Assembly: GCA_031415375.1 (NCBI GenBank)
Contig: JANORP010000479.1
Coordinates: 485-64,484 of the forward strand
From: Bacteroidota bacterium
Lineage (GTDB): Bacteria; Bacteroidota; Bacteroidia; J057; JADKCL01
Reading direction: 5' to 3'
DNA: 64,000 nucleotides
The notes under the pieces are model-generated. The model was not told where the DNA came from, made no database searches, and saw only the letters and a list, made by a program, of their open reading frames with translations. Shown here piece by piece: positions 46,736-60,518 of this stretch (positions within the stretch are counted from its first letter, which is position 1; the number at the start of each line of letters is the position of its first letter). The position numbers were made by a program, and so were the translations under genes.

Positions 46736-47725
46736 ATGCGCACATTAGCATCCATTCAACGCATCAAAGCCCTTGCCCCTATTGTGGGCGCAGACGCCAT
46801 CGAGAAAGCCACCGTGCTCGGCTGGCAACTCGTCGTGAAAAAAGGCGAATTCCAAGTCGGTGATCTTGCGGTCTATTGCGAGATCGACTGCCTCATGCCC
46901 GACCGACCTGAGTTTGAGTTTCTCAAGGCGCGCGGCATGCGCATCCGCACCATCCGCTTGCGCGGAGAGATTTCCCAGGGGATCTGTTTTCCATTGAGCA
47001 TTTTGCCTGTTGAGGTCGAGGCTGTCGAAGGCATCGATGTCACCGAGGTCATGGGCGTCGAGAAATATGAACCCCCGATTCCTGCATCGCTCTCGGGCGT
47101 CATGAAGGGTGGATTCCCAAGCTTCATTCCCAAGACCGACGAGACCCGCGTTCAAGTCTTGCAAGACATGCTCGACAAATATGCTGGCACTAGATGCTAT
47201 GTCACCGAAAAGCTTGATGGCAGCTCAGTCACTTACTACTTGAAGGACGGTGAATTTGGGGTCTGCTCACGCAACCTTGAATTGCTGGAATCTCCAGAAA
47301 ACAGCCTTTGGAAAGTCGCACGCACGCTGCAAATCGAGGAAAAACTACGCGCCCGTGGAGGCAACCATGCCTTGCAAGGCGAGATTGTGGGCGAGGGCAT
47401 CCAAGGCAACCTCTACAAATTGCGCGGCCAAACGGTATTTTTCTTCAATCTCTTGGACATCGATGCCTACCGCTTTCTGGATTTTGCTGAATTTGAGGCT
47501 GCGATGACCGCCATGGGATTGCAGTCGGTACCCATCCTCGACCGCGCCTACATGCTTGTGAGCGACATTCCCGCACTCGTAACCCTAGGCACTGGCATAT
47601 CGACCTTGTTCAAGGTCGAGCGCGAAGGCGTCGTCATTCGTCCGCTCAGCGAGGCACGCGACCTCATGGGGCGGGTCTCGTTCAAGGCCATCAACCCCGA
47701 ATTTCTCCTCAAACACGACCATTGA
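46736..47725 (+). CDS. ATP-dependent RNA ligase, DRB0094/Rnl5-like family
   Basis: 329 aa. The N-terminal OB-like segment (IKALAPIVGADAIEKATVLGWQLVVKKGEFQVGD) precedes the NTase motifs: motif I VTEKLDGSS, EGVVIRP, SFKAINPEFLLK. Confidence 0.75.
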   Translation: MRTLASIQRIKALAPIVGADAIEKATVLGWQLVVKKGEFQVGDLAVYCEIDCLMPDRPEFEFLKARGMRIRTIRLRGEISQGICFPLSILPVEVEAVEGIDVTEVMGVEKYEPPIPASLSGVMKGGFPSFIPKTDETRVQVLQDMLDKYAGTRCYVTEKLDGSSVTYYLKDGEFGVCSRNLELLESPENSLWKVARTLQIEEKLRARGGNHALQGEIVGEGIQGNLYKLRGQTVFFFNLLDIDAYRFLDFAEFEAAMTAMGLQSVPILDRAYMLVSDIPALVTLGTGISTLFKVEREGVVIRPLSEARDLMGRVSFKAINPEFLLKHDH

Positions 47726-49664: not shown

Positions 49665-52600
49665 TTATTTAGGTACCACCTTACCACTTACCGGCGGGCA
49701 AGCTCCTTGCTTGTCACCATGCTTGGCATGCACCGCCCAATCGGTTGCTGGGATCTCCAAAGTCACTGGCGCTTTGGGATTCTCTGGCGGAATATGGCAG
49801 ATGACGATTTTGGCGACCACCGGCTGCTTCACAGCGCCTTTTCCGTCCACCACACCCGTTTTCCCACCGACCGGCACTACTGCAGGCTTGCCGCCACCAT
49901 CGATTGGCTTCACGCCACCATCGACTGGCTTGCCGCCGCCATTGCTGCGACCTTGGTCACCTTCGAGGCAGGCACCCTGCGTGGCACCTTGCTCTTGGTA
50001 AATCGGCCACGACACGATCGGGATCAAAATCGTCTGATTTTGATAGCAGATCGTGATCTGCTGCAAGTTGCATGCACCGACTACATCGCGATGTGACTGG
50101 TGACCAGCCCAAGCCGACTCAGCAATCTCGATCGTCTGTGGATGCAAGGGATCGCCGGGCGGGATATGGCAGATGGTGATGCGTGCCTCGGGGCATGGCC
50201 CCTGCGTAGCACCTTGTGATTGGTAAGCCGCCCACGACGAGCTAGGCACGTTCATGTTTTGACCATCGATACAGATACTCATCAAGGTCATGTTGCAAGC
50301 GCCTTGCGTGTCGCCATGTGCCTGATGGGCAGGCCAGGCATTCTGCGGGATCGTGAGCGTCTGCGGATTTTCAGGATTGCCCGGCGGAATGTGACAGATG
50401 GTGATGCCTTGCGAAGGACATGGACCCTGGATCCAACCTTGTGATTGGTAGTAAGGCCAAGCAGCCGTAGGAATCTGGCGCGTGTTACCGTCGGCGCAAA
50501 TGCTCATCATCGTCATGTTGCAAGCTCCTTGCGTGTCGCCATGCGCTTGGTGAGCAGGCCATGCACTCGGTGGTACCGAGATCGTCTGCGGATTGTCGGG
50601 GTTGCCCGGTGGAATGTGGCAAATCGTAATATCGACCTCAGGGCAAGGCCCTTGGGTGGCACCTTGCAGTTGGTAATAATTGAAGGTCGCATTGGTGATG
50701 TTCATCGTCTCACCGTTGAGGCAGATGGTCATTCCCCCCATGTTGCAGGCACCTTGGGTATCACCATGACCTTGGTGAGCAGCCCAGGCACTTTGCGGAA
50801 TCGTGAGCGTCTGAGGATTGCGCGGGTTGCCCGGTGGAATGTGGCAGATCGTGAGTTGCGGCTCTGGGCATGGCCCTTGCGTCGCACCTTGGGACTGGTA
50901 GGCTGGCCATGCCGCAGTTGGCACGGTCATCGTCTGCCCATCCACGCAGATCGTGACGGGCGTCGTGTTGCAAGCACCTTGCGTATCGCCATGCGCTTGG
51001 TGGGCAGGCCATGCACTCGCAGGCACAGTGATCGTCTGCGGATTGCCGGGATTGCCAGGCGGGATATGGCAGATCGTCAATTGTTGCTCAGGGCAATCCC
51101 CTTGCTGCGCTCCAAGCGCCTGGTAGGCTGCCCAGCTGGAGGTCGGGATATTGATCTCCTGGTTGTTGTAGCAGATGCGCATCGGCGTCATGTTGCAAGC
51201 GCCTTGCTGGTCACCGTGGGCTTGGTGTGCAGGCCATGCGCTCGGGGCGATCGTGAGCGTCTGCGGATGCGAGGGGTCGCCCGGCGGCACGTGGCAGATG
51301 GTGATGTCAGCTTCTGGGCACTCGCCTTGCACCGCGCCTTGGGATTGATAGACTGCCCAACTTGCCGTTGGGACATTCAAGTCCTGACCATTCAAGCAGA
51401 TGCGTATCATCGTCATATTACAAGCCCCACGGGTATCGCCATGCGCTTGGTGTGATGCCCAAGCACTCTGCGGGATCGTGATCGTTTGCGGATGCGATGG
51501 ATCGCCTGGCGGGATATGGCAAATGACAATCTGAGGCTCTGGGCACGCACCTTGAGTAGCCCCCTGAGACTGGTAAGAAGGCCAAGCCGCAGTCGGCACG
51601 GTGATCGTCTGGTCATTGAAGCAGATCGTAATCGGCGTCATATTGCAAGCACCTTGCGTGTCGCCATGTCCCTGGTGGGCTGGCCATGCACTCTGCGGGA
51701 TAGAGATCGTCTGCGGATTGCCGGGATTGCCAGGTGGGATGTGACAAATCGTAATCTCATTTTCCTGCGGACAATCGCCTTCTATCGCACCTTGGGTGAG
51801 ATAGACTTGCAAGGATGCCCTTGGCACCTGGACCTCGCGGCCATTGAGGCAGATGACCACCATGGTCATGTTGCAAGCGCCTTGGGTGTCACCATGGCTT
51901 TGGTGCGAAGCCCAAGCACTTTGCGGAATCACGATCGTCTGCGGATGCGAGGGGTCGCCCGGTGGAATGTGGCAAATGGTGATCTCCTGCACAGGACATG
52001 GCCCCTGCGTCGCACCTTGGGATTGATAGCTAGGCCACGCTGCTTGAGGCACACTCATCGTCTGCCCGTCGATACAGATTTGCACAGGAGTCAAGTTGCA
52101 AGCACCTTGGGTGTCGCCATGTGCTTGGTGCGCTGCCCAGGCACTTTGCGGAATCGTGAGCGTCTGCGGATTGCCGGGATTGCCGGGCGGGATGTGACAA
52201 ATCGTAATCTCTGGATCAGGACATGGCCCCTCGGTATCGCCATGTGACAGGTGATAAGCCAGCGAAGCCCTAGGGATCTGCATGGTCGTCGATTGCCCAC
52301 GGGTCGTCCCTACATGGCAAATGGTCACCGTGCTCATGTCGCAGGTGCCTTGGACATCCCCATGTGCCTGGTGGCTAGGCCACTCGGTCATCGGGATCGT
52401 AAGCGTCTGCGGGCTATTGGGGCTGCCTGGTGGGATATGGCAAATGGTGATGCTCTGCACGGGGCAAGGCCCTTGCGTTGCACCCAATGCCTGGTAGGCA
52501 GGCCATGCAGCCGTCGGGATTTGCAGGGTTTGGCCCGTGCGCGAATCACCTTCGCGGTAGCAAATCGTCATCGGCGTCATGTTGCAAGCACCTTGGGTAT

Positions 52601-55600
52601 CGCCATGCGATTGGTGTCCCAACCATGCATTCTCGGGAATGGTAATCGTCTGCGCACCACTGGGATTGCCCGGTGGGATATGACAAATCTGGATCGTGCG
52701 GGTAGGACAAGCGCCACGGGTTGCACCCAAGCTCTGGTAATAGGGCCATACGCTCTCTGAGATGAGCAAGGTCTGATTTTGATAGCAGATCGAGATCAAG
52801 TTGCTGGAGCAAGCACCTTGCACGTCGCCGTGGCCTTGGTGGGCAGCCCATGCAGATTGCGGGATGGTGATCGTCATCGCACCACTAGGATTGCCTGGCG
52901 GGATATGGCAGATCTGGATTTCCTGTGGTGGGCATGCACCCTGGGTCGCGCCGAGGCTCAGCAATGCCTGCACTGCAGTATTGCTCACGGTCACGGTCTG
53001 CCCTTGGTAGCAAAGCGTAGTCTGTTGCGTGGCACAGGCGCCTTGCACGTCACCATGGCCTTGGTGGGCAGCCCACTGGTTTTCGTTGATCGTCATCGTC
53101 ACTGGCGCCGTCGGGTTGCCGGGCGGGATGTGGCAAATCGTGATCTGCCGCGGGGGGCACGCACCTTGGGTGGCTCCGAGATTTTGATAGACGGGCCAAG
53201 CGCTTTGCGAAACCGTCATCGTCTGGCCTTGGTAGCAGATCACCACCATGGTCGTCGAGCAAGGGCCCTGCACGTCGCCATGTGCTTGGTGCGATGCCCA
53301 AGCGGTCTCAGGAATGGTAAGGGTCTGCGCTGCCGCAGGATTGCCCGGCGGGATATGGCAAATGGTCACCGTGCGTGGCGGACATGGCCCTTGGGTAGCA
53401 CCGAGGTTTTGATAGACTGGCCACACCGTCTGCGAAACCGTAATGTTTTGGCCATTGTAGCAGATCGTGAGCTTGGTTCCGGAGCAAGCTCCTTGCACGT
53501 CGCCATGCCCCTGGTGCATGGACCACGCACTCTGCGGGATCGTCATCGTCGCTGCAGCCGCAGGATTGCCCGGCGGGATGTGGCAGATTTGGATATTGGG
53601 TTCTTGGCAAGGTCCCGTGGTGGCACCCATATTTTGGAATGCCCCGAGCGCAGATTGTGAGATCGATATCTGCTGACCTTGGAAGCAAATCGTGACCATG
53701 GTCTGTGAACAAGCGCCTTGGATGTCACCATGACCTTGGTGGCCCAGCCACTGGCTCACAGGGATCGTAAGCGTCTGCACATTTGCGGGATTGGCGGGCG
53801 GGATGTGGCAGATGGTGATCTGCTGCTCGACAGGCTGGGTACAGCTCAGCGACACACTCGCTTGGTCAGTCCCGACACTGTTGGTACCGATGATCGTGAA
53901 TTGCTCGACGATGCCAGGCGTGAGCGGCACGTCCATCACAAAGAGCTGGTTCATCGGGTTGAAGGAGTAGTTTTGCGGCGACACCACGCTGTTGCCAAAA
54001 AGCACGCGGATGTCTTGGATCCCATTGATGTTGAAGATCTGCGCCGTCACAATTTGATTGCAGTCGCTGCCTTGATAGACGCCACCCGTAGGGCGCACGA
54101 TCACGACATCAGGCGGTGGCAATTGCTGGTAGCAGCGCAGCATCTGGATGTCTGATGCGCGGCCAAACTGGTTGCTGGCGATGATTTCCACGATCGATTC
54201 GATGCCCTGCATGAGCGACACCGTGAGGGTCACTTGGCGCGTGTTGGGATTGTAGGACCAAGCATTGGGGGAGAGTAGCACGCGATCGACATAGACGCTG
54301 ATGTCATTTTTGCTTTGCACACCCGTGATCGTAGCGACGACAGTCTGCAAGCAGTTGGGGCTCACGAATGGCGTGATGCTCGGCGTGATGATCACGACAC
54401 CAGGTAGGTTGGGCTGCGCTTCTGGGCAGCGCAACATCGCCGTAGCGGTAGCCCGGCCAAATGGCGTCTGTGCAATGAATTCAAAACGATGGTCGCCAGG
54501 CGTGAGATCGACATTCATGACGACCTCATTGCTGCTAGGATAATACTCGTAATACTGGATCGGCACCTGCAAGCCGTTGTGATAGACAGCAACGTCTTGC
54601 TTGCTGCGAATATTATAGACAGTGACCTTGATCACACCACGGCAATCGGCCATGATTGCTGGGCAAGCGGTAGGATAGGTCACAAAGATCTGCGGCGGCA
54701 CACCGGTCGGCTGCGGATCGATCGGTATGATGATCGGCGCTTGACAGGTTGCAGAGAAACTCTGCGTCGCATTCGCATAGCGGTTGCGAGCAGTAAGTGT
54801 GAAATTATTGATGCCAGGAGCGAGATTCACCATCGCACTAAATTCGCCGGTGGATTCGTTGAAACTAAAGGAAGCAGGATCAACCGTGGTTCCATTTTGG
54901 GTGAAAATGACCAAAGCCTTGGAATGTACATTGTAAATGCGGGCTTTGACCTCAAACCGACATACACCCGGAACCTCATACGTCGGCCCCGATGGCATGA
55001 CCATCACGATTGCGGCACCATCGCCGCTCGGGGTATAGACATGTGGATCGGTGGGCGTGGTGCTGTGGTAGCTACCGCCGCCAAATAGCCCAAAGTCGAG
55101 ACTCAGACCTGCATAGTGGTGGATGTCTTTGTTGTAATTGAAAGCGTTATTATTGGTCGCGGCAAAGCCGTCGAGCAGATCGGTCTGGGGGAAAGTGATC
55201 TTCCACTCGGCCGACATCGCAAAGTAGCGGCTGAATTCGTAGCCAAAGCCGATGCCGACCGATGGTGCAAACCGCCAATGTGCCCAAGATGGGACGGGCA
55301 CACGGGTCTCCGAAGTACCATCACGCAAGAAATCGAGCTGGGTCCCGACCGACAATATGGAACCATTGCCGATTTGAGACGCATAGTTGTAAGGCGTTGA
55401 GCTAAAAAACTCATCAAAATTGTTTTGCTTGGGTTTGTAGCCCATCACGCCGACGCCACCCCATACATAGAGCAAAATGCCCGTATTGGCGCGCAAGCGA
55501 TTGGCTTTCAGTAGGAGCTCAAGGTCCCAATTGGTGGCACTCGTGCGGTGGTTGAGATAGTTTTGGCCACCGGGGAAGTTGAAGTCGGTGGTCGGCTTGA

Positions 55601-55865
55601 GGTTTTTCCCGTAGGAAACGCCCCAGAGGTAGCGTGCACGCAGACCAACGCCGATCAGGCTATGGTCGTTTTCGACGATTGGGACTTCAAAAGTAGCCCC
55701 AAATCCGCCGCCGCCTATGGTGCGCACATCTGAACTTTGCCATTCGACGCCACCATTCAACCCAAACCGCACTGCGGCTCGCGTTTCTTCTTTGATCTGC
55801 GCCTGGGCAAAAAGCCCACGCGAAATTCCAAGAAACAATAAAAAGAGAGGTAAAAAACGCTTCAT
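49665..55865 (-). CDS. giant outer-membrane-anchored repeat protein (N-terminal beta-barrel, 4 Ig-like modules, 18 Cys/His modules)
   Basis: Start moved to MKRFLPLFLLFLGISRGLFAQ (2066 aa). Barrel-like region at ~55074-55865, four ~95-aa Ig-like modules at ~53820-55020, then the ICHIPPGNP...HGD.QGAC array. No T9SS CTD. Confidence 0.9.
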   Translation of the reverse strand: MKRFLPLFLLFLGISRGLFAQAQIKEETRAAVRFGLNGGVEWQSSDVRTIGGGGFGATFEVPIVENDHSLIGVGLRARYLWGVSYGKNLKPTTDFNFPGGQNYLNHRTSATNWDLELLLKANRLRANTGILLYVWGGVGVMGYKPKQNNFDEFFSSTPYNYASQIGNGSILSVGTQLDFLRDGTSETRVPVPSWAHWRFAPSVGIGFGYEFSRYFAMSAEWKITFPQTDLLDGFAATNNNAFNYNKDIHHYAGLSLDFGLFGGGSYHSTTPTDPHVYTPSGDGAAIVMVMPSGPTYEVPGVCRFEVKARIYNVHSKALVIFTQNGTTVDPASFSFNESTGEFSAMVNLAPGINNFTLTARNRYANATQSFSATCQAPIIIPIDPQPTGVPPQIFVTYPTACPAIMADCRGVIKVTVYNIRSKQDVAVYHNGLQVPIQYYEYYPSSNEVVMNVDLTPGDHRFEFIAQTPFGRATATAMLRCPEAQPNLPGVVIITPSITPFVSPNCLQTVVATITGVQSKNDISVYVDRVLLSPNAWSYNPNTRQVTLTVSLMQGIESIVEIIASNQFGRASDIQMLRCYQQLPPPDVVIVRPTGGVYQGSDCNQIVTAQIFNINGIQDIRVLFGNSVVSPQNYSFNPMNQLFVMDVPLTPGIVEQFTIIGTNSVGTDQASVSLSCTQPVEQQITICHIPPANPANVQTLTIPVSQWLGHQGHGDIQGACSQTMVTICFQGQQISISQSALGAFQNMGATTGPCQEPNIQICHIPPGNPAAAATMTIPQSAWSMHQGHGDVQGACSGTKLTICYNGQNITVSQTVWPVYQNLGATQGPCPPRTVTICHIPPGNPAAAQTLTIPETAWASHQAHGDVQGPCSTTMVVICYQGQTMTVSQSAWPVYQNLGATQGACPPRQITICHIPPGNPTAPVTMTINENQWAAHQGHGDVQGACATQQTTLCYQGQTVTVSNTAVQALLSLGATQGACPPQEIQICHIPPGNPSGAMTITIPQSAWAAHQGHGDVQGACSSNLISICYQNQTLLISESVWPYYQSLGATRGACPTRTIQICHIPPGNPSGAQTITIPENAWLGHQSHGDTQGACNMTPMTICYREGDSRTGQTLQIPTAAWPAYQALGATQGPCPVQSITICHIPPGSPNSPQTLTIPMTEWPSHQAHGDVQGTCDMSTVTICHVGTTRGQSTTMQIPRASLAYHLSHGDTEGPCPDPEITICHIPPGNPGNPQTLTIPQSAWAAHQAHGDTQGACNLTPVQICIDGQTMSVPQAAWPSYQSQGATQGPCPVQEITICHIPPGDPSHPQTIVIPQSAWASHQSHGDTQGACNMTMVVICLNGREVQVPRASLQVYLTQGAIEGDCPQENEITICHIPPGNPGNPQTISIPQSAWPAHQGHGDTQGACNMTPITICFNDQTITVPTAAWPSYQSQGATQGACPEPQIVICHIPPGDPSHPQTITIPQSAWASHQAHGDTRGACNMTMIRICLNGQDLNVPTASWAVYQSQGAVQGECPEADITICHVPPGDPSHPQTLTIAPSAWPAHQAHGDQQGACNMTPMRICYNNQEINIPTSSWAAYQALGAQQGDCPEQQLTICHIPPGNPGNPQTITVPASAWPAHQAHGDTQGACNTTPVTICVDGQTMTVPTAAWPAYQSQGATQGPCPEPQLTICHIPPGNPRNPQTLTIPQSAWAAHQGHGDTQGACNMGGMTICLNGETMNITNATFNYYQLQGATQGPCPEVDITICHIPPGNPDNPQTISVPPSAWPAHQAHGDTQGACNMTMMSICADGNTRQIPTAAWPYYQSQGWIQGPCPSQGITICHIPPGNPENPQTLTIPQNAWPAHQAHGDTQGACNMTLMSICIDGQNMNVPSSSWAAYQSQGATQGPCPEARITICHIPPGDPLHPQTIEIAESAWAGHQSHRDVVGACNLQQITICYQNQTILIPIVSWPIYQEQGATQGACLEGDQGRSNGGGKPVDGGVKPIDGGGKPAVVPVGGKTGVVDGKGAVKQPVVAKIVICHIPPENPKAPVTLEIPATDWAVHAKHGDKQGACPPVSGKVVPK
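49668..53819 (-). repeat. in-frame coding tandem array, 225-bp period (17 full units of 75-81 aa plus 1 half unit)
   Basis: Counted from the translation. Every unit starts with I(T/Q/V)ICH(I/V)PP. The unit count is 18, with a Gly/Lys/Pro-rich linker before the last unit. Confidence 0.9.
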
Positions 55866-56204
55866 AAACTTAATTGGTCTCGATGATTTCCGTAGGCAAC
55901 GCCATAAGCGTTCCAAAAAAGACATTCTACCCTGAGAAACGCCTTGCAATCGTAATTGGCTCGCAAATTAGCTAAAAATTGTGTGCAATCGATATGGAAC
56001 CGTAACTTTCAACCTGTCTGATTTAATATACGTAATGGTCATTCTCAGTGGTCACTTTTCTATTCACCTCAGCTAGCTTGCGGCCCATCTCAAGGATTCA
56101 TCTGGCAGGGCCTAGACCTGCATTGAAGGGTTGCATGCAATTGCCAATAGGATCAAGCGAAAGCTAGATTGAGCGGCAATCCATTGAATCTGCTATATTG
56201 CAGC

Positions 56205-56708
56205 ATGATTTCACATGAATTGAAAGCCCAGGCCACGCTGGCCTACCACAACTGGAAGATGCGCAGTCCGGAAACATTTCCTTCCATCAGCGAGGAGGTC
56301 TTCATCCTGAAGTTTGAGGAGCTGCAAGCCACACACAACCGTGGGTTGATGAAGCGCACAGAGTTTGACCAGCGCATCGACGAGTTGTTGCGCAATCCGG
56401 GCATGGCCCTGAGCATCACCCATTTCACGCCACAAGAGAGACCGACTGAGACGCTGTTGCGCGAGCTCGAACACCTCAAAAAATCAGGCATCTTGAACGA
56501 TGAGGAATTTGAAACACGCAAGGGCGAGTTGTTTTTCCAACGCGGTGTGGAGGAAGGGCAGCCAGCGGTGACGGCTGCAAGCCATCCTAGCGGCGAAAAT
56601 CCTGATCAGGTCAAGGCCCGCCTTGCAGGCTATTTGGAGGAATTGCTGCGCGCCGGCATCATGAGCCATACCGAATATGCGATGGCCCAACAGCGGCTCA
56701 AAGCGTGA
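56205..56708 (+). CDS. SHOCT-repeat protein
   Basis: Start moved to ATG MISHELKAQ, preceded by TATATTG. SHOCT-like motifs LEHLKKSGILNDEEFETRKGELF and LEELLRAGIMSHTEYAMAQQRL. Confidence 0.6.
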   Translation: MISHELKAQATLAYHNWKMRSPETFPSISEEVFILKFEELQATHNRGLMKRTEFDQRIDELLRNPGMALSITHFTPQERPTETLLRELEHLKKSGILNDEEFETRKGELFFQRGVEEGQPAVTAASHPSGENPDQVKARLAGYLEELLRAGIMSHTEYAMAQQRLKA

Positions 56709-57592: not shown

Positions 57593-58282
57593 ATGTCACG
57601 CAAAATATTCATCAGCTACCGCCGTTCAGACTCTGCCGATTTCTCGGTGGCGCTGTACAATGAGCTGCGTGGATACTATGACGAATCCTTCATTTTCAAG
57701 GACATCAATACCATCCAGCCAGGTCAGCAATTTGCTGAGGTGCTCGAGAATGCGCTGGACCACTGCGCAGTGGTGCTCGTGGTGATCGGCCCGACCTGGC
57801 TCACGGTGAGCGGGGCGCGCTTGTTTGAGGAGCATGATTGGGTGCGCCAAGAGATCGCCAGGGCACTCGCCCGCAACCTGCGGGTGATCCCGATCCTCGC
57901 CAACGGCACCAAAATGCCCAAAACCGAGGAGCTGCCAGATGATCTTCATGGCTTGTGCAAACGCCAAGCCCTCGAGATTGACAACCAACGTTTTGAATAT
58001 GACGTAGCACAGTTGTGCAGGGCCATCCAAGATTTGGTTCCTTCCAAAAAACGAAGGGTGGCACCTGCAGGCAGCTCATACTGGGACAATGCTTTCAAGG
58101 CCATATTGCTCCTGTTCATGCTGGCTAGCATAGGTCTCATCGTATGGGCCTGGCTGGGAAGCGAGGGGCAATTCACTGAAAAAATCACGATGTCACTGCT
58201 TGGACTAGGTGGCATGGCTGGGGGCTGGGCTGCTTTTACGCGTCAGCGATGGATAGAATTGAGGGCCCATCAAATCGAATAA
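57593..58282 (+). CDS. TIR-domain protein with two C-terminal transmembrane helices
   Basis: 229 aa. It has a TIR_2-type N-terminus KIFISYRRSDS, then VVLVVIGP and DWVRQEI (W-x3-E). TM helices: AFKAILLLFMLASIGLIVWAWLG and ITMSLLGLGGMAGGWAAF. Confidence 0.8.
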   Translation: MSRKIFISYRRSDSADFSVALYNELRGYYDESFIFKDINTIQPGQQFAEVLENALDHCAVVLVVIGPTWLTVSGARLFEEHDWVRQEIARALARNLRVIPILANGTKMPKTEELPDDLHGLCKRQALEIDNQRFEYDVAQLCRAIQDLVPSKKRRVAPAGSSYWDNAFKAILLLFMLASIGLIVWAWLGSEGQFTEKITMSLLGLGGMAGGWAAFTRQRWIELRAHQIE

Positions 58283-58284
58283 GA

Positions 58285-58977
58285 ATGACTCTACACGGAA
58301 AATTTGGAGACCCAAAAACTGAACGCGACATCCTGTCTGCCAAACGATTCAATTTTGCATCGCTGGTGGTGCTGATCATGGCCATCGTCGCCGCTTTTTT
58401 TATGTATCTGCAGCTGATTTCCCAGCAGCGTGAATTGGAAGTGAAGACGCAACAACTGGCAGACAGCACGGCCCACCTGCGCAGGATCAGAGGTGAACTG
58501 GAGGAGGCCCAGCGGTCGCTGGCTATGCGCGAACAACGCATGGAGATGCAATTGGAAAATCTCAGCAACAGCGTCGAGCAGAGACAGTTCGACAGTGCCT
58601 TGGTGCAAGCCACGGCGATCAGCTCGCAGCTGGCTCGCAAGGACAGCACGGGACTCACCTTCATCAACTTCTATGCTTGGCAGCCGCAATCCAGCATCCT
58701 CTCAACCATCAAATCCTACCTCGCTGCACCAGAGTTCATCCTCGTGAAGCAGGAAACCCTGCAAGAGCTGCCCGATTGGATGGGCAAAAAGTCTGCCGTG
58801 TATTATTATTCCAAGACCGCCGCTTCCAAGGCAGAGACCATTGCGAAACAACTCAGCGCCATGTCGGGGAGTTCCTTTGAAGCCCTGCGCGGCGATGCCC
58901 AAAATGCGCCGCAAAATGGGCACCACGAATGGATACATATTCATTACCTTGGCGGCAGTTCGTATTTGCGTAAATGA
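58285..58977 (+). CDS. single-pass membrane coiled-coil protein with unknown C-terminal domain
   Basis: Start moved to ATG MTLHGKF, 2 nt after the TIR stop. TM FNFASLVVLIMAIVAAFFMYLQLI, a ~70-aa coiled coil, and a ~110-aa alpha/beta-looking tail. Confidence 0.65.
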   Translation: MTLHGKFGDPKTERDILSAKRFNFASLVVLIMAIVAAFFMYLQLISQQRELEVKTQQLADSTAHLRRIRGELEEAQRSLAMREQRMEMQLENLSNSVEQRQFDSALVQATAISSQLARKDSTGLTFINFYAWQPQSSILSTIKSYLAAPEFILVKQETLQELPDWMGKKSAVYYYSKTAASKAETIAKQLSAMSGSSFEALRGDAQNAPQNGHHEWIHIHYLGGSSYLRK

Positions 58978-60518
58978 ATGTAGCGTCTCCAAGCCTGTCC
59001 CCTTCTCGCAAGCTCCCGCTTTGGGTGTGGTGCCTGCTTGCGTGCAGCAGCCTCGTTCTCCTATCCTACACCTGCTATCGCGCAGCGGTGGTCACCCTCA
59101 CATTTGATGAGATCTGGAGCTTGAATGCTTATGCCAAGGCTAGCTGGGCCAACATCTTGGCTTTCAAACCCCTGAGCGCCAACAATCATATCGGGAATAG
59201 CCTGCTCATGAAGCTATGTTTGCAAGCTTTTGGCGACTCCGCACTGAGCCTGCGGCTCCCCAACTTGCTAGCCCATGGAATCTTCCTTGCCTACGCCATC
59301 GCTATGGCCCGGCGACTGCGCCAAGGCGTATGGGTTCTGCTCGCTTTTTTCCTTTTGAATTTCCATCCCTACCTGCTGGATTTTTTTTCGTTGGCACGGG
59401 GCTATGGGTTGGCCATGGCCATGGTCATGGCTGCCTTGTACCACCTGTTTGCCTTTCGGGAGAATGCCTTTTCTCGCCATATCATTTCCAATATCATTTT
59501 TGCGGGTCTATCGGTGGTCTTCAACTTGTCTTTCCTTCATTTTTTTGTGGCCAACGCCTTGGTGATGGTGCTCCTCATTTACAGCCATTCTCATGCCTGG
59601 AATGTCGATTTGCGGCAAGCGATTGTCTCGATGCTGAAGCGGCTAGCGCCGCTGCTCATCGTCTCGCTAGCACTTTACCTTTTCTTGCGCAAGCCGGTGC
59701 AAGCCTTGGTTGCTGCAAATGAACTCTATTATGGCGGCCACAGCGGTTTCTGGAGCGACACCGTCACGACCCTAGCCCACGCATTGCTCTACAAGATCGA
59801 CTACTGGCACCAAGACCTGGATTTGCTATTGAAATTTGGGCTGGGCAGCCTCTTCTGCATGTTTATTGCATTTGGGATCGAGCTGTCTGAGCGGCAATGG
59901 AAGTGGCGCGAATCCCCGGGTATGCTCACATTGATGCTCATGCTCGTGCCTACGGTGACCTGCACCGTGCAACATTTCACAGTGGGCAGTCCATTTCTCA
60001 TTTACCGCACCGCATTGTTTCTATTGCCGATCTATATGCTCGGCCTCGTCTGGCTGCTGCGCACGATTGCCAAGGTTCCTGCCTTTCGCAAAGGCGTGAT
60101 CGCCGTGTCCCTGCTCATCACCGCCATGCTCAGTATCCATAATTTTTGCGCCCTCAATCTCACGCATTGCGCTGAGTGGTCCACCGATGCAGACACCGCC
60201 ACGATGTTGCAGGATTTGAAGGCCGACCGGCTGCGGCGCGGCATCTCAGGCCCGAGCACCCTGGGGATGAGCTGGCAATTGAGGCCCGGCACCAATTATT
60301 ACAGAACCCATCAACATTTGGATTGGCTGCCCGAGATTCCACAAGCTAGCTGTCCTGCAGGGATGGATTATTATTTCCTACTAGGCGGCGAATGGACGTG
60401 CAAGTTGCCCGTTGCGCCATCGGCGACCGGGGAATGCGCTGGCTGTACACTCATCCAAAGTTACCCGATCTCCAACACGACCTTGTGGCGCGTGGCGCCT
60501 ACAGCAATCGCCGATTGA
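58974..60518 (+). CDS. GT-C fold (GT39/GT83, PMT/ArnT-like) polytopic glycosyltransferase
   Basis: 514 aa with >=10 predicted TM helices. First-loop DE motif (TFDEIWS) and SLRLPNLLAHGIFLAY pattern. The ATG overlaps the upstream stop (ATGA). Confidence 0.65.
   Translation: MNVASPSLSPSRKLPLWVWCLLACSSLVLLSYTCYRAAVVTLTFDEIWSLNAYAKASWANILAFKPLSANNHIGNSLLMKLCLQAFGDSALSLRLPNLLAHGIFLAYAIAMARRLRQGVWVLLAFFLLNFHPYLLDFFSLARGYGLAMAMVMAALYHLFAFRENAFSRHIISNIIFAGLSVVFNLSFLHFFVANALVMVLLIYSHSHAWNVDLRQAIVSMLKRLAPLLIVSLALYLFLRKPVQALVAANELYYGGHSGFWSDTVTTLAHALLYKIDYWHQDLDLLLKFGLGSLFCMFIAFGIELSERQWKWRESPGMLTLMLMLVPTVTCTVQHFTVGSPFLIYRTALFLLPIYMLGLVWLLRTIAKVPAFRKGVIAVSLLITAMLSIHNFCALNLTHCAEWSTDADTATMLQDLKADRLRRGISGPSTLGMSWQLRPGTNYYRTHQHLDWLPEIPQASCPAGMDYYFLLGGEWTCKLPVAPSATGECAGCTLIQSYPISNTTLWRVAPTAIAD

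Follow-up and report, generated by a model that had tools for sequence, protein, structure and literature searches.

What holds a very long chain of cysteine- and histidine-rich repeats to a bacterial envelope, and what are the repeats themselves? The question is raised by a reverse-strand gene within a 64,000-nucleotide stretch of Bacteroidota DNA (GenBank assembly GCA_031415375.1, contig JANORP010000479.1, positions 485 to 64,484; this whole stretch is referred to as the window), encoding a 2,066-residue protein that a preliminary description had likened to the inverse autotransporters of the intimin/invasin type. We find that the protein is anchored by an OmpA-like barrel and carries a previously unnamed, widespread mini-domain; the preliminary description was accurate on the sequence and misread the anchor.

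We modelled the N-terminal domain with AlphaFold2 (AF2) using 31 family sequences. The model showed a mean predicted local distance difference test score (pLDDT) of 83, exceeding 90 on most strands, and comprised eight β-strands formed by the residues 32-44, 49-64, 72-93, 101-120, 130-147, 196-210, 215-228, and 247-261. These are joined by short connections of 4-9 residues (45-48, 65-71, 94-100, 121-129, and 211-214) and by two long loops (148-195 and 229-246); the termini share one side of the barrel with the turns 65-71, 121-129, and 211-214, and the long loops face the other. The best Foldseek matches in the PDB were OmpA, OmpX, NspA, OprG, Ail, and OmpW, all of them eight-stranded, with a Foldseek probability of 1.0 and target-normalised TM scores of 0.46-0.71. 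On the sequence level, the window protein matched the Pfam family OMP_b-brl with 14.5-19.6 bits, under the gathering score of 28.7, and the N-terminal domain gave a further sub-threshold match to PorG, an eight-stranded protein of the type IX secretion system (T9SS), in Pfam/NCBIfam. Among the relatives, OMP_b-brl matched 6 of 31 and 5 of 39 proteins with a best E-value of 1.5e-6, and DUF6089 matched relatives as well. Neither a PDB sequence search with the N-terminal 683 residues nor a search of the PDB with the barrel profile yielded a match. Based on the model and its structural matches, the N-terminal domain is predicted to be an eight-stranded outer-membrane barrel of the OmpA/OmpX type.

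An exhaustive HMMER search for this barrel family returned 487 cluster representatives, comprising proteins of up to 2,896 residues, and the barrel domain was N-terminal in all of them. A genome scan using a 6-sequence alignment located the family only in Bacteroidota metagenome-assembled genomes (MAGs), assigned to Bacteroidia, Cytophagaceae, Saprospira, Aureispira, and Flavobacteriaceae. The A-Q pair at the end of the signal peptide is near-invariant throughout the family (Q23), consistent with cleavage by signal peptidase I. At the other end of the chain, basic termini are enriched: 50 of the 150 best barrel-family representatives (P0041-P0190) end in K or R, and 19 of the 150 end in P[KR], compared with an expectation of about 0.4%. 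Examples are ...GKVVPK in the window protein, ...GKVIPK in its closest relative found, encoded at locus L002 of a Bacteroidota MAG, and ...PRRPR in others. This basic end may represent an unrecognised C-terminal signal. An Lpp-like covalent attachment of the C-terminal Lys to peptidoglycan was rejected, as many relatives end in Arg. We also observed that the two long barrel loops, L3 and L4 (residues 148-195 and 229-246; window 55278-55421 and 55125-55178), contain the near-invariant residues Y159, D182, Y185, E186, D229, D232, and G233. Such near-invariance of presumably extracellular barrel loops is unusual for surface loops of outer-membrane proteins.

The barrel is followed by a hinge, the sequence of which is not conserved in the family consensus, and by four Ig-like modules of 96-102 residues. 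These modules share 24-31% mutual identity and each contains a conserved Cys pair near its start and end. AF2 yielded a sandwich for residues 285-374, with Foldseek matches to titin and NCAM Ig. The same repeat type forms the body of the barrel-family members, where it matches Big_7, Glucodextran_B, cadherin-like, PKD, and CE2_N. A T9SS C-terminal domain (CTD), be it Por_Secre_tail/TIGR04183 or the type B domain CHU_C, gave no match at E<=1 in Pfam/NCBIfam and was likewise not found in 39 relatives. Both the lack of a CTD and the order of signal peptide, barrel, four Ig-like modules, and repeat units are thus as originally described.

Beyond the Ig-like region lies the repeat array, built from modules of one 37-residue ββα type that occur in two forms: A modules bearing a quartet of three His and one Asp, and B modules lacking it. 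Tandem Repeats Finder (TRF) detected arrays with a 225-nt period at 50130-52229 and 53116-53585, and the translation contains 19 ICH[IV] modules spaced 75-81 residues apart. Both agree with the 17 complete units of 75-81 residues plus a terminal piece that had been counted before, the latter being a lone module behind a linker. In total, the protein holds 35 modules, which contribute 70 of its 79 Cys, and the quartets account for 57 of its 71 His. In a MAFFT alignment, half B retains both Cys of half A, has the seven-residue PPGNPxxP loop deleted, and is substituted at all quartet positions (H5 to Y/F/L/I/V, H27 to Y, H30 to Q/L/M, and D32 to A). The idea that half B arose as a copy of half A with its His depleted is borne out by this alignment. 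In unit 7 the module in the B position keeps its His/Asp set, as originally described, and an AA pair at the same position is also present in L002. The terminal module recurs as a close variant in L002 and P0003 and in a more divergent form in L008.

The module pattern of the window protein and that of L002 are identical over all 35 modules (ABABABABABABAAAB...A). On the DNA level the units are 57-81% identical, the longest exact stretch between units being 32 nt. Given this low unit identity and the collinear, independently assembled L002, a collapse or expansion of the array is unlikely, and the copy number given in the preliminary description can be kept. A more distant syntenic orthologue with 15 units is encoded by L001 (Bacteroidia MAG GCA_046329055.1), and its first six units are one-to-one orthologous with window units 1-6. 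The L001 orthologue lacks the terminal lone module and ends in ...PSGGQ. The subfamilies described earlier are present in the array, units 1-5 with 51-72% and units 8-16 with 58-83% mutual identity. The stepwise block amplification proposed earlier is plausible. It would have to be ancient, since the units correspond one-to-one to those of L002 at near-saturated synonymous sites. Judged from these alignments, the array is old and any block amplification predates the lineages of the window, L002, and L001.

We modelled two units with AF2, using internal unit pairs as the alignment, and obtained a mean pLDDT of 94.7. In each of the four modelled modules, a two-stranded hairpin leads into a helix of 9 residues and then into a short third strand. 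Single modules and small relatives gave no Pfam/NCBIfam match even at E<=10, the PDB contained no match for two units or for the module profile, and Foldseek on the four-module model returned nothing at E<1. The motif strings of the module were also absent from the full-text literature. Thus, in Pfam, NCBIfam, and PDB searches the module belongs to no named family, as had been supposed.

Searching with two units yielded 39 proteins, and a profile of 49 diverse modules added 260 more. The best-scoring profile matches were mostly proteins of 56-79 residues, and the full-length ones that we inspected consist of a signal peptide and one module; the small secreted proteins with single-copy ICH...HGD..G.C motifs, which the preliminary description had mentioned, were thereby found. 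Named sources of the matches include Tenacibaculum, Lacinutrix, Pseudofulvibacter, and Gemmatimonadota, and the 39 matches of the two-unit search contain a secreted protein with one module from the myxobacterium Pyxidicoccus (P0035). The module is further located at the C-terminus of proteins with a prepilin N-methylation signal (P0016, P0017), whereas P0006 carries two modules and terminates with LAYTG, a hydrophobic segment, and a tail of basic residues, a C-terminus that we read as sortase-type anchoring. Within the barrel family, 33 of the 150 best representatives contain the module, usually towards the C-terminus. As far as this distribution of matching sequences goes, the module is a widespread unnamed mini-domain of exported proteins, occurring in several phyla and beyond Bacteroidota. 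In two Lacinutrix genomes (L020, L024) a single-module gene of 69-74 codons is situated between a parvulin-type rotamase gene and a Methyltrans_RNA gene, the latter probably rsmE, next to tamB and tsaD. The neighbours of single-module genes in other genera differ from those in Lacinutrix.

On which side of the outer membrane the chain resides is a separate question, and periplasm and surface appear about equally probable. Eight-stranded barrels have both termini in the periplasm, and by this rule for even-stranded barrels the hinge and the long chain would leave on the periplasmic side. An OmpA-style periplasmic chain, whose basic C-terminus would touch the peptidoglycan or the inner membrane and which might scaffold or tether the envelope or buffer metal at high capacity, comes close to an even chance without quite reaching it. 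It agrees with the modelled barrel topology, having short turns on the side of the termini and long loops opposite, as well as with the Pro/Thr/Gly hinge, which follows the barrel as in OmpA. The K/E/A-rich tails of several relatives resemble TolA domain II in composition, although no OmpA_C or other peptidoglycan-binding domain was detected. Disulfide-rich domains fold readily in the periplasm, the approximately 39 Cys pairs of the chain would be ill suited to threading through a pore, and neither a translocator nor a CTD nor a conserved partner gene was detected. However, an extended chain of about 100 nm would span several periplasm widths. Moreover, the architecture resembles that of an adhesin, the families matched by the Ig-like arrays of the relatives are typical of surface proteins, and the module is found elsewhere on pilin-like and LPXTG-like surface proteins. 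We know of no periplasmic protein with long tandem Ig-like arrays. Bacteroidota export N-terminally anchored lipoproteins by an unknown route, which we counted in favour of a surface location.

To define the conservation of the module, we searched with a hidden Markov model built from the A and B modules of the window, which gave 448 distinct modules in 90 proteins. The Cys pair is complete in 436 of them, and the remainder are partial-length matches. The quartet His5/His27/His30/Asp32 is complete in 286 modules, wholly absent from 140, and partial in 22. It was lost by at least two routes, one in the loop-deleted B lineage and the other on the A-type scaffold of P0041 (L005:9929-15025), which keeps the PPGN loop and the Cys pair, and in which all four quartet residues are replaced together (the three His by Asn, Tyr, and Gln in this order, and the Asp by Ala). 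Accordingly composed arrays are all-A (P0048, P0101, P0068), alternating (the window and L001-L003), or quartet-less (P0041, P0084). As the Cys are retained in all quartet-less modules, their role appears independent of the His, and a disulfide would staple the ends of each module. The quartet itself looks like a cooperative site, its four residues being retained or lost together. A Cys2His2-type zinc coordination involving the two Cys was rejected, because all quartet-less modules keep them. An HNH-type nuclease was rejected as well, given that the catalytic His-Asn pair and any profile match are missing and that some arrays are quartet-less.

What would such a chain do? The two functions proposed in the preliminary description, a metal-binding polymer and a disulfide-locked stalk, are still the leading candidates on the basis of sequence patterns. 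The existence of quartet-less arrays implies that a chain-building role requires no metal site, which looks like an add-on. Conversely, the quartet is preserved in stand-alone single-module proteins, for which a spacer role is out of the question, so that the site probably binds something itself, most likely a metal. We therefore favour a disulfide-stapled scaffold or spacer carrying an optional single metal site per module, to which we assign an even chance, and we regard metal binding by the quartet as such as slightly the more probable outcome. In the proposed arrangement, His5, which adjoins the first Cys and closes strand 1, the His-x2-His pair at the C-terminus of the helix, and the Asp two residues further on would together form one divalent-metal site, for which Zn2+ would be the most likely metal and Cu2+ or Ni2+ possible ones. 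The sites might serve stability, capture, or buffering. The B modules would lack the metal, their site being filled by Tyr and aliphatic side chains; that Tyr can stand in for both His5 and His27 in these modules suggests contact between the two positions. The array would primarily constitute a long, stiff, disulfide-stapled beaded spacer tethered to the outer membrane, with an estimated length of about 100 nm if extended. Such a chain would carry 19 metal sites, one on every second bead; it ends in a flexible linker, a distinct basic terminal module, and the ...PK tail.

Several points weigh against this reading. The all-or-none pattern of the quartet is owed in part to the common ancestry of a few module lineages and does not stem from many independent events. 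No metal-homeostasis gene or conserved partner was found near six single-module and four family genes, and the metal-related profile matches are insignificant (an FtrD-like match with 17 bits and a BagZ/FevE copper chaperone match with 13 bits). If metal capacity were the aim, one would also not expect alternate modules to lack the site regularly. The beads may instead be purely structural and metal-free, with the quartet acting as a hydrogen-bond or pH-responsive network or binding something other than a metal, for instance a glycan or a mineral surface, and the chain forming a disulfide-locked stalk or adhesin. This alternative, which we consider unlikely, can draw on the preserved scaffold of the quartet-less arrays (P0041/L005, P0084), on gene neighbourhoods devoid of metal-related functions, and on the identical 35-module pattern of the window and L002, pointing to a ruler or spacer role. 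It has to account, however, for the 286/140/22 distribution of complete, absent, and partial quartets, a classic pattern of a cooperative ligand set of three His and one Asp, and for the quartet being kept in secreted single-module proteins that are no spacers. In addition, the repeated surface modules of Pht proteins are proven to bind Zn2+ through three His and a carboxylate (PMC3842936). Combining the scaffold with a metal site and with the surface alternative, the fibre, despite hanging from an eight-stranded barrel with no pore, T9SS signal, or partner gene, might be displayed by an undescribed Bacteroidota route for barrel-anchored proteins, and exported proteins might share in the bead a widespread metal-binding domain that is new; this joint proposal is tentative and, taken as a whole, rather doubtful.

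The analogy with type Ve inverse autotransporters put forward in the preliminary description, by which the N-terminal barrel would export its own Ig and repeat passenger through its pore, is very improbable. The succession of barrel, Ig-like repeats, and long C-terminal region fits this analogy, as does the lack of a T9SS CTD, but the barrel is eight-stranded in the AF2 model and its Foldseek matches are OmpA, OmpX, NspA, and Ail, with intimin/invasin absent among the 50 matches listed. Pfam IAT_beta gave no match at E<=1, and strand 8 is followed by a disordered, unconserved hinge instead of a pore-filling linker. Furthermore, the approximately 39 Cys pairs, with their partners 33-72 residues apart, would probably oxidise in the periplasm before threading.

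The open reading frame (ORF) of the gene extends upstream as far as a TTG at 55949, whereas the ATG at 55865 opens the sequence MKRFLPLF..., a typical signal peptide, and the N-termini of all close homologues agree with it, thus defining a product of 2,066 residues. The frame is uninterrupted across 6.2 kb. The L002 protein, comprising 2,057 residues, is collinear from end to end with 74% identity and 17 gap positions. With synonymous sites near saturation, the ratios of nonsynonymous to synonymous substitution (dN/dS) against L002 rise from 0.04 in the barrel through 0.07 in the Ig region to 0.14 in the repeats and 0.15 in the linker and terminal module. This is a genuine gene, conserved in an uncultured lineage of Bacteroidota, and its array is under purifying selection. 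In L001, which shares the neighbouring β-lactamase, RNA-ligase, SHOCT, and TIR genes with the window, the orthologue (L001:9947-15659) is broken into three ORFs by frameshifts in the Ig region, which could be an assembly error or a pseudogene. Four antisense ORFs of 169-336 residues cross the array on the forward strand (window 50445-53660); they are Arg/Leu/Ala-rich with repeats of the array period and look like by-products of the repeat codon composition, not genes. That repeat collapse or expansion made the window gene an assembly artefact or a decaying pseudogene, for which the frameshifts in L001 and the long antisense ORFs could be cited, is extremely improbable in view of the intact frame, the dN/dS values of 0.04-0.15, the identical module pattern in an independent assembly, and unit identities of at most 81% with shared exact stretches of at most 32 nt. 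We also sought an operator-like inverted repeat upstream of the gene and found none.

Table 1 Features of the gene and its product. Positions refer to the window; aa, residues of the protein; CDS, coding sequence.
Feature	Residues (aa)	Window positions	Strand	Sequence	Basis or remark
Complete CDS	2,066 aa + stop	49665..55865	(-)		ORF list, translation, collinear L002 orthologue
Signal peptide	1-21	55803..55865	(-)	MKRFLPLFLLFLGISRGLFAQ	AF2 helix at aa 5-19
Predicted 8-stranded OmpA/OmpX-like outer-membrane β-barrel	~30-262	55080..55778	(-)		AF2, Foldseek, sub-threshold OMP_b-brl
Gly/Pro/Thr-rich hinge	263-282	55020..55079	(-)		pLDDT <50 at aa 263-280
Four Ig-like β-sandwich modules	283-381, 382-483, 484-579, 580-676	53838..55019	(-)		Internal alignment, AF2
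17 two-module units	683-1966	49968..53819	(-)		TRF, alignment, AF2; 18 A + 16 B modules
Second module of unit 7	1180-1215	52221..52328	(-)	VTICHVGTTRGQSTTMQIPRASLAYHLSHGDTEGPC	B position, H/H/H/D quartet kept
G/K/P/V-rich low-complexity linker	1967-2019	49809..49967	(-)		Counterparts in L002, L008, P0003
Terminal lone A module	2020-2056	49698..49808	(-)	IVICHIPPENPKAPVTLEIPATDWAVHAKHGDKQGAC	
Short basic tail + stop codon		49665..49697	(-)	...SGKVVPK	Translation

The genes around the locus offered no functional link, encoding a formate-tetrahydrofolate ligase, an RNA ligase, and β-lactamase-fold, zinc-ribbon, SHOCT, and TIR proteins. Just upstream lie the genes of a SHOCT protein (56169-56708) and a TIR_2 protein (57593-58282), in the same order as in L001, and the latter could be a defence gene. 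The RNA ligase (46736-47725), also present in L001, has an OB-fold N-domain of the PHA02142 type and belongs to a phage-like family.

A possible glycosylation of the array had been raised on account of N-x-T sequons and a glycosyltransferase gene nearby. Nine of the 17 half-A/half-B junctions indeed match CN[^P][ST], but the sequon is not conserved, its position reading NMA in P0003 and NMG or NLQ in window units 14 and 17, and no oligosaccharyltransferase or GT-C match was obtained nearby; the idea of N-glycosylation was therefore not upheld. N-linked glycosylation is not known in Bacteroidota. The GT-C glycosyltransferase reported at a distance of 3 kb could not be confirmed. The gene meant is probably the ORF 58974-60518, which encodes a 514-residue membrane protein with at least seven hydrophobic segments, has no Pfam/NCBIfam match, and is absent from the syntenic L001. 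The general O-glycosylation motif of Bacteroidota, D[ST][AILVMT], does not occur in the 2,066 residues, compared with a rough estimate of about four occurrences by chance.

If these readings hold, they define a new domain family of 37 residues in hundreds of exported bacterial proteins across several phyla, which alone would be a secreted metal-binding mini-protein and in tandem a metal-loaded stalk. Modules with and without the metal site, alternating in one chain, would constitute a natural experiment. In addition, about 490 Bacteroidota protein clusters would fuse an OmpA-like barrel to very long Ig-like chains, which would be either giant periplasmic polymers or surface fibres exported by an unknown route. 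We know of no precedent for giant periplasmic polymers of this kind, and a location on either side of the membrane would add to the knowledge of the Bacteroidota envelope.

The SprB-type giant T9SS adhesins of gliding Bacteroidota lineages are likewise very long, repeat-built envelope proteins, differing by their T9SS C-terminal domain and a separate partner of the PorP/SprF type, where the window protein has a fused N-terminal barrel and no CTD. With the type Ve proteins intimin and invasin it shares the order of N-terminal barrel, Ig-like repeats, and long C-terminal chain. Inverse autotransporter barrels have 12 strands. In the type Ve proteins, a linker runs through the pore, the bottom of which is plugged by a helical turn on the periplasmic side (PMC13078405). 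In contrast, the window protein, as far as can be judged from the model, has eight strands and no lumen, its hinge is disordered, IAT_beta does not match, and its passenger would be rich in disulfides.

The single module may be likened to C2H2 zinc fingers and HNH fingers in its size of 30-40 residues, in the order of hairpin and helix, and in its candidate ligands, which are placed where strand 1 ends and within the helix. In colicin-type HNH motifs, three His bind Zn or Ni. The module differs by having neither C-x2-4-C...H-x3-5-H nor a catalytic His-Asn, by giving no HNH or zf-C2H2 match (E<=10), and by being exported and, presumably, disulfide-stapled; an Asn in its loop is not conserved across the module family. 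A parallel in ligand composition is provided by the streptococcal Pht modules, each of which binds one Zn2+ via three His and one Asp/Glu (PMC3842936). These, too, are short modules repeated in an envelope protein, and the quartet of the window protein has the same composition. The motifs are nevertheless distinct, HxxHxH compared with H...H-x2-H-G-D with the third His 22 residues upstream, as are the folds, three strands compared with a hairpin and helix. The Pht hosts are Gram-positive, and the window protein has no Strep_his_triad match and no AdcAII-like partner nearby. We take the resemblance as a putative functional analogy only.

The closest counterpart of the anchor is the OmpA/OmpX/NspA/Ail class of the Pfam clan MBB, which has eight strands like the window barrel and gives the best superposition with its predicted model. 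In OmpA, the barrel is followed by a flexible Pro-rich hinge and further domains, an arrangement that the window protein shares. Where OmpA continues with its C-terminal OmpA_C domain, the window protein and 39 relatives lack PF00691, the chain of the window protein being extended instead by about 1,800 residues of Ig-like and bead domains.

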